DNA from: an uncultured Candidatus Rokubacteria bacterium
Lineage (GTDB): Bacteria > Methylomirabilota > Methylomirabilia > Rokubacteriales > DASRDR01
Length of the DNA: 64,000 bases
NCBI GenBank assembly: GCA_963708025.1
Contig: CAVPSB010000018.1
Location: 192,001-256,000 of the forward strand
Reading direction: 5' to 3'
How positions within the stretch are numbered: position 1 is the stretch's first letter; each line of letters opens with the position of its first letter. The notes below the pieces were generated by a model that searched no databases, had not been told where the DNA came from, and saw nothing but the letters and a program-made list of their open reading frames with translations. A program made the position numbers and the translations under genes. Positions 6,577 through 36,675 of the stretch are shown one piece after another.

Positions 6577-7683
6577 ATGGCGCGAAAGAGGCCGGAGAAG
6601 AACGGAGCGGTCGAGAAGAAGCTGGTCGGCGTGGCCGACGTCGTGATCACGGCCGCCGAGCGGAGCCGGGACCCCGCGCTGGCGATCCCCGTCCGCAGCC
6701 TCGCCAACGTCAAGTTCAACGAGAAGCGGGGCATCATCGAGATGGGCAGGAGAAAGCAGGCCCGCACGTTCTTCAACGTGGGGATGGCGAAGAAGTTCAT
6801 GCAGACCGTGCTGGTGGCCGATGCCCTGGCCGAGCTGCAGCGGGCGGACCTCACGACCTCGCTCCGGGAGATCTACTACCGCACGAAGCACACGATCAGC
6901 GACTCGCACGAGAACACGTTCGACGGCCAGAACGAATCCGACCCGCTGATCGAGGACCTCGAGGTCACGCTGGCGGCGCTCCGCGAAGAGCTCCACGTGC
7001 GCGCCGAGAACGCCGGCAGCATTGTGGGGCCGGTCGTGCTCGTTGACGACGGCGATCGGGTGGACTGCGCCCGTTTGGGCAAAGGCGGCTACTCGGTCCC
7101 CTCCATCGTCGAGCCCGAATACATCCAGATCCGGAGTTGCACGGCGGACTTCATCCTCCTCGTCGAGAAAGGCACGCAGTGGAACCGCCTGTCGGAAGAC
7201 AAATTCTGGCGCCGGTACAACTGCGTGCTCCTGACCGGCAACGGCCAGCCCCCCCGCGGCGTCCGGCGCCTGGCGCGCCGGCTGCACGAGGAGTACAAGA
7301 TTCCCGTGTATGTCCTCGTCGACAACGACCCGTGGGGTTACTACATCTACTCGGTCGTGAAGCAGGGATCGATCAATCTCGCGTTCGAGAGCCAGCGGAT
7401 GGCCATTCCCAAGGCCAAGTTCATCGGCCTGTCCAGCGCCGATCCCGAGAGCTACGGCCTCCCGCGCAACGTCGGCATCAAGCTCAACGACAAGGACGTC
7501 AGCCGGGCCAAGGAGCTGCTCAGGTATCGCTGGTTTCAGAAGAAGGACTGGCAGGCGGAGATCAAGCGGATGCTCGCGACCGGTCTCAAGTACGAGCTCG
7601 ACGCGCTGGCCAACAAAGATTTCCGCTACCTGACCAAGACCTACCTGCCCCGGAAGCTCAAAGAAAGAGACTGGCTGGACTAG
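6577..7683 (+). CDS. top6A: DNA topoisomerase VI subunit A (Spo11 family)
   Basis: SLREIYY with the catalytic Tyr, QNESDPLIEDLE, Toprim VEK and DNDPWG, KYELDAL; directly downstream of top6B. Confidence 0.95.
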   Translation: MARKRPEKNGAVEKKLVGVADVVITAAERSRDPALAIPVRSLANVKFNEKRGIIEMGRRKQARTFFNVGMAKKFMQTVLVADALAELQRADLTTSLREIYYRTKHTISDSHENTFDGQNESDPLIEDLEVTLAALREELHVRAENAGSIVGPVVLVDDGDRVDCARLGKGGYSVPSIVEPEYIQIRSCTADFILLVEKGTQWNRLSEDKFWRRYNCVLLTGNGQPPRGVRRLARRLHEEYKIPVYVLVDNDPWGYYIYSVVKQGSINLAFESQRMAIPKAKFIGLSSADPESYGLPRNVGIKLNDKDVSRAKELLRYRWFQKKDWQAEIKRMLATGLKYELDALANKDFRYLTKTYLPRKLKERDWLD

Positions 7684-7787
7684 TGCCGTTCCAACTGCAT
7701 GAGCCAAGATGGGCAGCCGATTCTTGAAGCACGGACTTGCCCGCAATTCCTCGAAGGGCTGGCTGGAACGAGTTGGAACGGCACTAG
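7680..7787. mobile_element. MITE-like element with 17-bp perfect terminal inverted repeats
   Basis: CTAGTGCCGTTCCAACT (7680-7696) and AGTTGGAACGGCACTAG (7771-7787) enclose a non-coding, lower-GC interior. CTAG/TA lies at both ends and the left end contains the top6A stop. Confidence 0.8.
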
Positions 7788-7850
7788 CGCGAATGAGCCG
7801 CAACGGACGGTCAGACCCCGGTGACTCCGAGCGTCGTCGCGGGTAGGCGT

Positions 7851-9299
7851 GTGTCCCGTCTGCGGGTCCTGATTGCGGTCTTCGACGGGCTCCAGCCATC
7901 CCAGGTCCGTCCCGGCATCACGCCGACCATTGACCGGCTGGCGAGAGACGGCGTCACGTTCGCGCGCCATCATGCCGTCTTCCCGACCGTCACCCGCGTG
8001 AACGCGGCCAGCATGGTAACCGGGCGCCACCCGGGCGGGCACGGGCTGCTCGGGAACACGCTGGTGGTGCCCGAGTGGGCCCCGTACCGGGCGATCCCGG
8101 CCCTGGTGCCCGAACTGGAGGCGATCGCCGGGGCGACGGGCCGGGTGCTGCTGGCGCCGACTCTCGGTGAGATGCTTCGTCCCCACGGGCTCACGTTCGG
8201 CACCGTGGTGGGCGGCACCAGCGGCAACGCGTACGTTCAGCACCCGCATGCCGCCCGGGTGGGCGGCGCCGTCCTCCATCCTGAATTCGCCCTCCCCGCG
8301 GATCACCATGCGCCGATGATCGCGCGCTTCGGCCCCTGGCCGCCGAAGCGCGCGCCCGCGATCGGGCGCATTCGCCAGGCCGCCGACGTCTTGCTCGGCT
8401 ACTTGCTGCCGGAGGTCGATCCCGAGGTCGCGCTGGTGTGGTTCCCGGAGCCGGACACCTCGCAGCACGCAGCCGGGGTCGGCTCGCCGCCAGCCGTCGA
8501 CGCGTTGACCGCCGCCGACGCCGAGCTCGGTCGGATCGTGGCGGAGCTCGGACGACGCGGCGTCGAGCCCGACGTGCTGGTGCTGTCCGACCACGGGTAC
8601 TCGACCGTCGCCCGTCTGATCCCGATCGAGGCCCTCGTCCGGGAGGCCGGGTTTCCGCCGGCGGACACGGCCGGCGGCGTGGTGGTGGCCGCGAATGGCG
8701 GGGCGGTGCTGTTCTACGTCCGCGATTCGGACCCCGGCGTCCTCGAACGATTGACCGGGTGGCTCGTCGCGCAGCCGTGGGCCGGTGCCCTCGTCGCCGG
8801 ACGGGCGGAGGGCGCGGCGCTCGGGCTTCTCCCCGGTGACCTGCTCGGGCTGGCCGGGCCCCGCGCAGCCGATGTCGTGCTCTCGTTCCGGTGGGATTCG
8901 GCCGGTACGGTGAACGGCTTCGCCGGATGCATCGACAGCGCCGAGGGGGCTCCGGGCCTTGGCACCCACGGGTCGGGCAGTCCCCACGAGCTCCGCTGCG
9001 TGTTGATCGCCAGCGGCCCGAGCTTCCGGCAGCGGCTCGTCTCCGAGCTGCCCTCCGGCAACGTCGACATCGCGCCGACCGTGCTGCGTCTGCTCGGGGT
9101 GACGACGGACGCGGCGCTCGACGGCCGACCTCTGATCGAGGGCTTGCGCAGCGCAGCCGATCGGCCTCTCGAGGCGTCCGCGCCGCATCGATACGAGGCG
9201 ACTTGCCGGATGGGTGGCGTGAGCCTCGTGCACTGCGCGGTCGTCGAGGGTGTCGGACACGCCCGGTACGTCGCCTCGCTGGGCGTCGAACGGCCGTAG
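7851..9299 (+). CDS. Alkaline phosphatase / nucleotide pyrophosphatase-phosphodiesterase family protein
   Basis: VFDGL, FPTVTRVNAAS (Thr nucleophile), EPDTSQH, LSDHG, GTHG, NVDIAPT. Confidence 0.85.
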   Translation: MSRLRVLIAVFDGLQPSQVRPGITPTIDRLARDGVTFARHHAVFPTVTRVNAASMVTGRHPGGHGLLGNTLVVPEWAPYRAIPALVPELEAIAGATGRVLLAPTLGEMLRPHGLTFGTVVGGTSGNAYVQHPHAARVGGAVLHPEFALPADHHAPMIARFGPWPPKRAPAIGRIRQAADVLLGYLLPEVDPEVALVWFPEPDTSQHAAGVGSPPAVDALTAADAELGRIVAELGRRGVEPDVLVLSDHGYSTVARLIPIEALVREAGFPPADTAGGVVVAANGGAVLFYVRDSDPGVLERLTGWLVAQPWAGALVAGRAEGAALGLLPGDLLGLAGPRAADVVLSFRWDSAGTVNGFAGCIDSAEGAPGLGTHGSGSPHELRCVLIASGPSFRQRLVSELPSGNVDIAPTVLRLLGVTTDAALDGRPLIEGLRSAADRPLEASAPHRYEATCRMGGVSLVHCAVVEGVGHARYVASLGVERP

Positions 9300-34547: not shown

Positions 34548-34624
34548 GAAGCCCGGGATCGACTGTGTATACTGGCCGCGCGCGGACCACGCCGGTGGGG
34601 CGGAATGGCGGGAAGGAGTCACCC

Positions 34625-35155
34625 ATGCGGAGCGACCGGGTAGGCAGTCTCGGATTGCTGCTGCTGATCGCCCTGGCCGGGATCGGCGCGAAGGGAACGG
34701 CCGAGAAGCCAGTGGCGGCCGCCGGTGGTCCTCAGGAAGCCGAGGTCACCGGGGTTCTGGTCGATCCCCAGACCCGGCAGCCGCTGGTAGTCCTGCAATC
34801 CAAGCGCGACAAGCGGACGCTGATCCTGACCATCGGGCATTTCGAGGCGAACGGGATCGCCATCCCGCTCCAGGGGGTCACGCCGCCCCGGCCGCTGACC
34901 CACGACCTGATCCTGAACCTGCTCGCCGATCTCAAGGCGTCCCTCGCGCGGATCGTGATCACCGATCTCAAGAACGACGTCTACTACGCGGTGCTCCACC
35001 TCGACGTCGGGGGCGTCGCGCGAACACTCGACTCGCGGCCCTCGGACGCCATCGCCCTCGCCCTCCGCGCCAAGGTGCCGATCCTGGTCGAGGAACGCGT
35101 TTTCGAGAAGGCGGAGCGATCGATGCCGAAGCCGGCGCCGTCCCCTCACTTCTGA
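34625..35155 (+). CDS. Bifunctional nuclease family (DUF151) protein with an N-terminal signal-like segment
   Basis: IGHFEANGIA, RPLTHDL, YYAVLHL, DSRPSDAIALALR; AAGGAG RBS. Confidence 0.9.
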   Translation: MRSDRVGSLGLLLLIALAGIGAKGTAEKPVAAAGGPQEAEVTGVLVDPQTRQPLVVLQSKRDKRTLILTIGHFEANGIAIPLQGVTPPRPLTHDLILNLLADLKASLARIVITDLKNDVYYAVLHLDVGGVARTLDSRPSDAIALALRAKVPILVEERVFEKAERSMPKPAPSPHF

Positions 35156-35159
35156 ATCC

Positions 35160-36113
35160 TTGGCGGACGCACGACTCGGCTCGGCCCTTCCCTCGCTCGA
35201 GTGGGCAGTCCAGCGTCGCCTCGACGACCTCATCGCCAAGCTAGAGGTGAAGTTCGGCGATCTGCGCGGCCGGATCGAGGTGGCGCCGCGGCCCGCCGTC
35301 ACTTTCGACCTGATCGGGGGGGCCGATCACGCGAAAGGCGGGATCAGCAGCCTCTCCTACGCCCTCCGGATGCCGGAGCTGTACGAGCGCTGGGGGATCA
35401 GCCCGCCGCGGGGGGCCCTCCTCTACGGCCCACCCGGCAACGGCAAGACGCTCCTGGCCAGGGCGCTGGCCACCCTGTCGGAGGCCCTCTTCTATCACGT
35501 GCGGCTCCAGACCCTCACCTCGAAGGTCGGGCCCAACTCCGCCGAGGTGATCAAGGAGGTGTTCCAGCTCGCGAGGTCGGAAGGGAAGGGCGTCATCTTC
35601 CTGGACGACGCCGACGCGCTGTCGCTCGAGCACCTGCTGCCGCCCGACCGGGCCCGCGAGGCGGCCGGGCCGCTGATCAGCGGCCTCTGCGAGCTGCTCG
35701 ACGGGCTCCGGGCCTCGCCGAGCTTGCTGGTGCTGGCCTCGACCAGCCGGCCCGACGGCGTCGAGTCACCGCTCATCGCGCCGGGACGGCTGGATCACCT
35801 CATCGAGGTGCCGCTGCCCGACGGCCCGGCGCTGCGCGAGATCATCGACATCCGCCGCCGCCGGGCGGAACAGACCGCGGGGCGGACCCTCTTCGAGGCG
35901 CTCGACTACGAGGCGCTGGTCCCGCGGCTGACGGGCATGACCGGCGCCGAGGTCTCCGAGGTGCTGCGCCGGGCCCTGGAGGCCAAGGTCCAGCTCGCCG
36001 GGTCGGGCACCGATCCGGGACTCGTCACCACCGCCAACGTCCTGCGCTCGGTGGACGAATTTCGTCGGATACGCGAGGTGGTGGTCAAGATCCGCTACGG
36101 GCAGTACCTGTAG
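35160..36113 (+). CDS. Single-domain classic-clade AAA+ protein with degenerate catalytic motifs and a C-terminal GQYL motif
   Basis: Walker A GPPGNGKT; Walker B VIFLDD; SRH ASTSRPD..PLIAPGRLD; ends KIRYGQYL*. Confidence 0.88.
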   Translation: MADARLGSALPSLEWAVQRRLDDLIAKLEVKFGDLRGRIEVAPRPAVTFDLIGGADHAKGGISSLSYALRMPELYERWGISPPRGALLYGPPGNGKTLLARALATLSEALFYHVRLQTLTSKVGPNSAEVIKEVFQLARSEGKGVIFLDDADALSLEHLLPPDRAREAAGPLISGLCELLDGLRASPSLLVLASTSRPDGVESPLIAPGRLDHLIEVPLPDGPALREIIDIRRRRAEQTAGRTLFEALDYEALVPRLTGMTGAEVSEVLRRALEAKVQLAGSGTDPGLVTTANVLRSVDEFRRIREVVVKIRYGQYL

Positions 36114-36115
36114 CT

Positions 36116-36241
36116 GGCGCCGTGCCGATGACCTTCGCATCCCGTCGTCCTCGGTCGTCGGCGGGCCTCAACGTATGCGGCATACGCCTCGGCCCGCCTC
36201 CTCCCTGCGTCCTAGGGCTGCTCGGTTTTCGGCCCGGCGCC
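36116..36241 (+). repeat. Structured repeat family A, divergent short copy
   Basis: Shares GTCGTCCTCGGTCGTCG and TCCCTGCGTCCTA with 38862-38985, while the stems differ in sequence yet still pair. Confidence 0.8.
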
Positions 36242-36255
36242 CATTCGTAGCACCC

Positions 36256-36675
36256 GTGGGGGAAGTCACGGTCGGTGAGACGACGGTCCGGGTCCGGTAC
36301 GCGGAGACGGACACCATGGGCGTCGTCTACTACGGCAACTACCTGACCTACTTCGAGGTCGGCCGCGTCGAGTTCCTCCGCCAGAACGGGCTTCCGATGT
36401 CCGAGGTCGACCGGAAGATCCACATGCCCGTGGTGGAGGCGACCGTTCGGTACGTGAAGCCCGCGCGCCTCGACGATCTCTTGCGCATCCGCTGCTGGGT
36501 CGCCGAGCGCAAGCGCGCCTCGTTCCTCTTCCAGTACGACATCCGGCACGCCGAGAGCGGCGAGGTGATCGCCACCGGCCATACCCGGCACGCCTGCTGG
36601 CACCCGGAGAGCCAGCGGATGATCGGCATTCCCGAGTGGCTGGCCGCGCTCCTGGTGCCCACCAGTCCCTCATGA
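36256..36675 (+). CDS. Acyl-CoA thioesterase, YbgC/4HBT family
   Basis: VRVRYAETDTMGVVYYGNYLTYFEVGR, YVKPARLDD. Confidence 0.92.
   Translation: MGEVTVGETTVRVRYAETDTMGVVYYGNYLTYFEVGRVEFLRQNGLPMSEVDRKIHMPVVEATVRYVKPARLDDLLRIRCWVAERKRASFLFQYDIRHAESGEVIATGHTRHACWHPESQRMIGIPEWLAALLVPTSPS

Follow-up and report, generated by a model that had tools for sequence, protein, structure and literature searches.

This report concerns a gene in a 64,000-nucleotide stretch of DNA (hereafter the window; positions 192001-256000 of contig C18) from the assembled genome of an uncultured soil bacterium of Candidatus Rokubacteria, phylum Methylomirabilota. The gene (35160..36113 on the forward strand, stop codon included) has a TTG start and 317 codons, and encodes a protein with a single AAA domain that ends in ...VVVKIRYGQYL: the last four residues, to which an earlier note on this DNA had drawn attention, are those common to the proteasome activators Mpa and Bpa (PMC12288473, PMC8142254, PMC6017811, PMC6466877). 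The open reading frame (ORF), a Pfam AAA match, an AlphaFold2 model and Foldseek comparisons all bear on its identity. The protein belongs to a new family of minimal AAA proteins with the tail that serves for docking on bacterial proteasomes; the phylum has a Pup-proteasome system of the actinobacterial type, and the window protein is probably an undescribed proteasome partner. The interpretation favoured here, if only somewhat, is that it represents a new minimal AAA ring which docks on the proteasome and which, in the window's own lineage, would be poor at hydrolysis and would not thread substrates.

In homologue comparisons the tail KIRYGQYL (residues 310-317; 36087..36110) is invariant. 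GQYL, whose conservation among orthologues the earlier note had proposed checking, closes all 244 family sequences inspected, at identities down to about 42%, and KIRYGQYL is also present in 11 further loci taken directly from genomes (5/5 from the lineage designated f10 and 6/6 from further genomes). A word-indexed protein search gave 1,344 proteins at E ≤0.001 among 8,000 scored candidates; the 120 listed among these (58-100% identity) all end in GQYL. In an exhaustive search of 1.84 billion cluster representatives, of which the best 150 matches were considered, five end in QYL (P0122, P0126, P0129 and P0171, at 43-51% identity, and a fragment, P0174): these are exactly the relatives of the ~310-aa type that align to the last residue, and all five have GQYL, while the next-best family in that set consists of ~500-aa single-AAA proteins with a different C-terminus. 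When the search was centred on P0171, all 120 listed proteins ended in GQYL, 116 of them in KIRYGQYL, and in a 63-sequence alignment (A3) R312, G314, Q315, Y316 and L317 are invariant. A contig search seeded with the Walker A region returned 79 loci but a single true member (L010, from a Rokuibacteriota metagenome-assembled genome, 55% identity), the others being generic archaeal or bacterial AAA proteins. Database labels of the homologues are Candidatus Rokubacteria, Methylomirabilota and NC10, and the family appears essentially specific to Methylomirabilota.

Such an ending is also rare in the host: only 3 of 40,940 stop-to-stop ORFs of at least 100 aa end in QYL, all three in GQYL, namely the window gene, Mpa, and an Arg-rich ORF of 164-199 aa. 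The last (C18:476712-477311) was considered as a possible Bpa and rejected, having no Pfam match, being rich in Arg and overlapping better ORFs in other frames; its 164-aa form (L007 4713-5207, C18:476712-477206) lies in a region of phage-like unannotated ORFs and apparently ends in GQYL by chance. Mpa is the sole other credible GQYL-ending protein of this genome. Given both this rarity and the invariance of the tail in every homologue examined, the ending of the window protein is not a chance one.

The gene itself is real, conserved and under strong purifying selection. Among 29 coding sequences (Nei-Gojobori method, NG86), the 25 closest pairs have dN/dS values of 0.06-0.16 at dS 0.07-0.52, far below the value near 1 that the earlier note had associated with simple decay; the median over all 406 pairs, where dS is saturated, is 0.33. 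Two soil RNA libraries contain near-identical contigs (221 nt with 2 differences, and 151 nt with 3 differences); most of the matching pieces in such libraries come from other organisms and are generic fragments of Walker A or BFN sequence, and presence in a library does not show transcription.

The earlier note had made its proposal hinge on a 20S proteasome in the host: prcA and prcB are present, together with mpa, dop, pafA and pup. The host assembly (8.17 Mb in 49 contigs, each of 69-72% GC; reported completeness 99.7%, contamination 8.2%) includes the whole mpa-dop-prcB-prcA-pafA operon, located on contig C25 (482 kb) rather than on that of the window, with NCBIfam scores for Mpa, Dop, PrcB, PrcA and PafA of 752, 626, 299, 330 and 592 bits, all over the equivalog cut-offs; both oligonucleotide/oligosaccharide-binding (OB) domains of Mpa are detected by Pfam. 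At the 5' end of prcB (L006 7869-7969), a PrcB-propeptide-like start is out of frame with the mature PrcB ORF (7129-7869), which may stem from a frameshift, from an error in assembly or from the insertion of the repeat described below. The Pup gene is unlinked from the operon (C14:460152-460340, L009), and its product ends in GGE, vs GGQ in the Pup of three relatives examined. No Bpa was found in the host genome (best PF10759 match 14 bits), and no Cdc48/Cpa-like protein; apart from the window gene, its classic AAA complement comprises Mpa and three FtsH-like paralogues, none of them more than 28% identical to the window protein. A third match to PF00227 (on contig C49), considered as an alternative protease partner, is HslV, beside HslU, xerC and topA. 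The HslU downstream of it (L008 3152-4518) appears as two adjacent ORFs of 187 and 268 aa, ending in ...DLSRYIL, a split that may reflect a frameshift or an assembly error.

Host PrcA matches that of Rhodococcus at E 4e-74 and that of M. tuberculosis at E 5.5e-69. Its K51, invariant in 21/21 PrcA sequences from the phylum, aligns with position 52 of Rhodococcus PrcA, presumed here to be the pocket Lys (the term "K52" gave no match in PMC8142254). A Lys in the alpha-subunit pocket makes a salt bridge with the C-terminus of the activator (PMC6466877, PMC12288473). A conserved GxYx tail and a host PrcA that keeps the putative pocket Lys are both present, as in the 20S activators with a penultimate Tyr, and docking on the 20S core would be the most economical explanation for the tail.

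The protein is small and has a single domain. Pfam places PF00004 at residues 87-219 (E 1.7e-24; 87.1 bits vs a cut-off of 21.2), and with a match above the gathering score and an AAA alpha/beta core with a helical lid, it counts as a classic AAA ATPase. About 45 residues precede the AAA module, as the earlier note had it, and Pfam finds AAA-type domains alone, with none of the coiled-coil/OB domains (PF17758, PF16450) in the window protein. The sole element ahead of the module is a conserved helix (residues 13-32, EWAVQRRL[DE]DL...; 35196..35255) seen in the AlphaFold2 model and in alignment A3, where conservation reaches 90% or more at R19, R20, L21, D23 and L28. The model, built on A3, has a predicted local distance difference test score (pLDDT) of 92.7 and a predicted template modelling score (pTM) of 0.88, and runs from this helix through the AAA core and lid to a long last lid helix (residues 291-312; 36030..36095) which carries a five-residue tail of lower confidence, exposed past the end of a PAN/p97-like AAA module. 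Foldseek gives the PAN AAA domain as the best match (TM 0.88-0.91 over the target), with p97 and FtsH also found (E ~1e-17 to 1e-18). A complex prediction of two PrcA chains with AAA residues 222-317 gave 0.04, 0.36 and 0.31 in its runs, a median of 0.31 vs a mark of 0.32, and was made without controls.

The motor motifs are where the window protein departs from the canonical pattern. Walker A (GPPGNGKT, residues 90-97; 35427..35450) is intact. In Walker B (IFLDDAD, residues 146-152; 35595..35615) the acidic pair is DD rather than DE (FFDEMDA in host Mpa); the pore-loop-1 segment (TSKVGPN, residues 120-126; 35517..35537) has Val at the aromatic position, occupied by the Tyr of KYVG in host Mpa and by Phe or Trp in relatives; the sensor-1 segment (ASTSRPD, residues 193-199; 35736..35756) has Ser replacing Asn (ASNRQD in host Mpa, STNRPD in relatives); and in the second region of homology (SRH; LIAPGRLDH, residues 205-213; 35772..35798) the first Arg has become Ala while the second, in PGR, is kept (ILRPGRLD in host Mpa). 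These states of Walker A and B, and the loss of the aromatic residue from pore loop 1, of Asn from sensor-1 and of the first Arg from the SRH, had been read from the protein in the earlier note, and alignment with relatives and host Mpa agrees on every one.

How far this degeneracy extends is another matter. In the 124 nearest sequences, Walker A is GPPG[NTS]GK[TS] in 120 (otherwise GPAG in 2, GPRG in 1 and gapped in 1); the Walker B pair is ED in 69, DD in 41 and DE in 14; the pore-loop position is aliphatic or Thr in 119, Phe in 2, Trp in 2 and Gly in 1; the sensor-1 Asn is found in 7; and at the first SRH position 2 have Arg and 1 has Lys. In a divergent set of 120 sequences from the search centred on P0171, where tallying the ten most frequent patterns of each motif gives lower bounds, DE is found in at least 112, Phe or Trp in at least 108, the sensor-1 Asn in at least 71 and the first Arg in at least 42. 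The full degenerate set is present in 18/18 loci of f1, the window's own taxonomic family; f5 combines an Ile pore loop with DE, f2 has Phe with DE, f10 has Trp with DE, and NC10-type members additionally retain the first SRH Arg. The earlier note's description of a pseudo-unfoldase therefore stands for f1 but not for the family as a whole, and that state would hold for the window's lineage only: the degenerate motifs are a derived state of f1, not a family-defining trait. Because other lineages keep DE, a Phe/Trp pore loop, often the Asn and sometimes the first Arg, the ancestral protein looks like a competent minimal unfoldase, without an N-domain and with a GQYL tail. From the motif states laid on the taxonomy, and because the degenerate clade is the most nested part of a tree of AAA domains, the family would have begun competent-looking and then lost its catalytic and threading residues stepwise.

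Assuming that the tail does what it does elsewhere, a family protein would assemble into a ring and dock on the host's 20S proteasome, which is of the actinobacterial type, at its alpha-ring, the GQYL tails inserting into the inter-alpha pockets as those of Mpa/ARC and Bpa/PafE do; the phylum, which has neither Bpa nor Cpa, would then possess a second regulator of the proteasome in addition to Mpa. In f1, with the Walker B Glu replaced by Asp, the sensor-1 Asn by Ser, the first arginine finger by Ala and the pore-loop aromatic by Val, the protein would most likely bind ATP, hydrolyse it poorly and thread no substrates, since residues for hydrolysis and threading have been replaced and yet purifying selection is strong; the f1 ring would then be a cap that opens the gate in a nucleotide-dependent manner, or would regulate access to the 20S core. 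Ring formation and the loss of ATPase and threading activity are, like docking itself, predictions from sequence. A more elaborate scenario, distinctly tentative, is that Methylomirabilota, independently of Actinobacteria, made a proteasome regulator of their own from an unrelated AAA lineage, which shed its N-domain and gained GQYL, and that in one family this became an ATPase-dead but strictly conserved, nucleotide-sensing cap gating or apportioning 20S access vs Mpa.

Several observations weigh against the docking-ring interpretation. The 20S interaction is a putative one, and the tail extends just ~5 residues past the long helix, its reach into the alpha pockets being likewise putative. 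Proteasome genes never adjoin the AAA gene, in the 31 loci of the same order or in the 5 f10 loci whose neighbourhoods were compared. An ED/DD pair and a Val pore loop are no proof of lost activity: the pore-loop position of p97 D1 is likewise an aliphatic residue. The association across genomes is also less telling than it might seem. Among 251 Methylomirabilota genomes, the AAA gene is present, in single copy, in 206, PrcA (TIGR03691) in 194 and a Pup-ligase-family gene in 212 (among them some genomes marked unpublished, on which nothing but these counts rests: each count includes G034, G076, G217 and G218, and that of the AAA gene also G044). With PrcA alone as the marker, 162 AAA-positive genomes have it and 44 do not, vs 32 and 13 of the AAA-negative ones; with either PrcA or Pup ligase, the figures are 176 and 30, vs 37 and 8. 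The co-occurrence with prcAB that the earlier note had wanted checked is there, in 176 of 206 AAA-positive genomes counting either marker, but it has little discriminating power: the proteasome is near-universal in the phylum (about 213 of 251 genomes with a Pup-proteasome gene), making for a weak test. The 37 proteasome-bearing genomes without the AAA gene and the 30 AAA-positive genomes with neither PrcA nor Pup ligase are further difficulties.

The first of these exceptions are concentrated in f13 and f8 (AAA gene in 2/20 and 4/15 genomes, respectively), which mostly carry the proteasome without the AAA gene; the AAA protein would on this account be an accessory. Cpa follows the same pattern, its carriers having a proteasome while some proteasome carriers lack Cpa (PMC6466877). 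As to the second, an intact Pup gene is present at another locus in all five of the high-completeness exceptions tested (G219, G220, G224, G136 and G154). In f2, all 27 genomes negative for Pup ligase are negative for PrcA as well, so that the operon is missing as one unit, as expected from one unbinned contig. The only clean proteasome-negative lineage is f6, whose two genomes are ~100% complete and lack the AAA gene too. A candidate counter-example, f10, with the AAA gene in 6/6 genomes and PrcA in 0/6, was followed up in five of the six and rejected, the proteasome operon being fragmented across short contig ends: Mpa is present in G043 and G041 and truncated by a contig end in G045, fragments of Pup ligase lie at contig ends, and a PrcB-like match lies on a 1.6-kb contig, while PrcA itself was not found in these five. 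The Mpa of f10 (G043, L132) ends in GHYL; the small AAA protein of the same lineage keeps GQYL.

Another possibility is that the protein is a working minimal unfoldase in f1 too: an ED or DD pair may hydrolyse and an aliphatic loop may grip, giving a second, Pup-independent proteasomal ATPase. The permanent retention of Walker A, of the second SRH Arg and of an acidic pair fits this, as do the strong purifying selection and the canonical relatives, which look fully competent. The changes at four catalytic and threading positions, however, come together and are fixed in all 18 f1 loci, and the structural models differ at the same place: the pore-loop segment of the window protein lies within one continuous predicted helix (116-140), unlike that of the canonical member P0126, where a loop at 121-124 interrupts the same region. 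This difference between the two is only a hint, but with the fixed substitutions it makes a working f1 unfoldase unlikely, though the least unlikely of the rival explanations.

A docked but inhibitory ring would also account for the tail. Such a negative cap would compete with Mpa for the alpha-ring pockets and so limit Pup-dependent degradation; its tail is the same as Mpa's, its motor is degenerate in f1, and regulation of activator association is undescribed according to a 2025 minireview (PMC12288473). The canonical relatives, whose motors are intact, argue instead for a productive ancestral role, and a purely negative function seems improbable. Equally improbable is that KIRYGQYL serves a non-20S partner, ring assembly or autoregulation, its likeness to the tails of Mpa and Bpa being coincidental. 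The conserved block is, at 8 residues, longer than GQYL; the gene is not linked to the proteasome operon; 30 AAA-positive assemblies lack both PrcA and Pup ligase; and the host has HslV, whose partner HslU also works via a C-terminal tail (ending ...SRYIL). Against coincidence, the tail is invariably GQYL in a phylum whose Mpa likewise terminates in GQYL or GHYL, the family does not extend beyond this proteasome-bearing phylum, and the exceptions tested retain Pup or operon fragments. A decaying pseudogene or annotation artefact, suggested by the loss of several catalytic residues, can be dismissed in view of the low dN/dS (0.06-0.16), the single-copy gene in 206/251 genomes of the phylum, the confident predicted fold and the near-identical contigs in two soil RNA libraries.

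The gene neighborhood is conserved within the order. Directly upstream, its stop 4 nt before the AAA start, is a gene for a BFN-domain (PF02577) protein (34565..35155, forward strand; Pfam E 2.6e-35) with an N-terminal hydrophobic segment, which suggests a signal peptide or membrane anchor. The BFN gene holds this position in 31/31 loci of the same order, all arranged as major facilitator superfamily (MFS) transporter, BFN, AAA and thioesterase genes (in some with FTHFS beyond), and is absent from 5/5 f10 loci, where none of the MFS, BFN, thioesterase or FTHFS neighbors was found. It is a conserved context, and any functional link to the AAA protein is putative. At f10 loci (L125, L128, L129) the AAA gene is instead tail-to-tail with a ThiF-family (E1-like) gene (74-78 bits), with a DUF3568 gene upstream and a weak Prok-JAB match of 19-21 bits, under the cut-off of 25. 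In the window, the intergenic segment that separates the AAA and thioesterase genes (36114-36260) is a copy of a dispersed ~100-bp repeat: blastn-short of this segment against the host genome gave 184 high-scoring segment pairs, several of them 97-98% identical over 100-103 nt, and a look-alike lies between dop and prcB on C25. The repeat resembles a miniature inverted-repeat transposable element (MITE) or a repetitive extragenic palindromic (REP) element.

What would a docking role mean? Bacterial proteasome activators known from the literature are Mpa, Bpa and Cpa (PMC12288473, PMC8142254, PMC6017811, PMC6466877), and a 2025 minireview describes the regulation of activator association with the 20S core as wholly unknown and considers it likely that Mpa depends on additional factors (PMC12288473). 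The interactors so far described, Mpa/ARC, Bpa/PafE and Cpa only, are all actinobacterial. If the family docks on the 20S core, it would be a fourth candidate interactor, none having been found described outside Actinobacteria; its GQYL tail would be a convergent gain by an unrelated AAA lineage; and its members, from competent to degenerate motors, would form a natural graded series with which to probe the contributions of an AAA ring to the 20S core other than unfolding. If the apportioning-cap scenario is true, a regulator dedicated to activator association would, with the f1 protein, be known for the first time from a bacterial proteasome system, and the series would run naturally from unfoldase to pseudo-unfoldase. 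The window protein should be easy to test, being small and single-domain with a confident in silico fold. A literature survey, judged from titles and abstracts and with subscription-only papers outside its scope, found no description of a GQYL AAA family.

The origin of the family was addressed by an IQ-TREE phylogeny of AAA domains with 50 rows: 13 of the GQYL family, 16 of the ~500-aa family, D1 and D2 of 8 Cdc48-like proteins, 3 host FtsH and 2 Mpa. In this tree, which is midpoint-rooted only, the GQYL family forms one clade (100/100), which groups with the ~500-aa family (100/100), while FtsH, Cdc48 D2, and Cdc48 D1 with Mpa lie across the midpoint root. Because the family is a single clade distinct from Mpa, its GQYL tail was acquired independently of Mpa, in a phylum that itself has the proteasome. 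The sister proteins (P0138, P0142, P0153, P0155 and others) are ~500-aa single-AAA proteins with a C-terminus of the type ...YER.K....GF; their ~230-aa N-terminal region has no Pfam match, and no name was found for their family.

Comparison with known systems gives partial likenesses only, and NCBIfam, Pfam and the AAA-domain tree agree with the earlier note that the window protein is not Mpa, Bpa or Cpa. Its nearest NCBIfam subfamilies, all far under their cut-offs, are PAN (150 bits), CDC48 (145) and FtsH (104). PAN thus offers the best subfamily score, as well as the best fold match and a tail that follows the last lid helix, but its coiled coil, OB domain and HbYX tail (hydrophobic residue, Tyr, any residue) set it apart from the window protein, which has no N-domain and ends in GQYL, and the scores (144-150 bits for TIGR01242/NF003069) fall short of the cut-off of 500. 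Against solved structures, the family profile is nearest the D2 domain of Cdc48/p97/VAT (341 bits); VAT, too, has an HbYX tail. The window protein differs from Cdc48 and Cpa in having one AAA domain rather than an N-D1-D2 arrangement, and scores 145 bits for TIGR01243 vs a cut-off of 802; Cpa, moreover, is described as being without the penultimate Tyr (PMC6017811, PMC6466877). A defence ATPase of the IetA or TRIP13 type, indicated by PADLOC, was rejected: the scores of 52 and 41 bits reflect generic AAA similarity, and two neighboring genes have no PADLOC match.

The closest parallels to the proposed role are the actinobacterial activators themselves. With Mpa/ARC the window protein shares a classic-clade AAA domain, a C-terminal GQYL and an occurrence in the same genomes as bacterial PrcAB, but it lacks the coiled coil, the double OB domain and the Mpa-type C-terminal extension, and scores 71.2 bits for TIGR03689 vs a cut-off of 504.75 (752 for host Mpa). 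From host Mpa it differs further in its AAA core (28% identity), its place on another branch of the tree, its location outside the operon and the degenerate motor of f1. To Bpa/PafE there is no homology, PF10759 being absent among Pfam matches at E up to 0.01, and Bpa, a dodecamer of four-helix bundles, has no nucleotide site (PMC6466877); both, however, are small proteins with a C-terminal GQYL, encoded apart from the proteasome operon, and if the motor of the window protein is dead, it would functionally be like Bpa/PafE: a gate opener that does not unfold.

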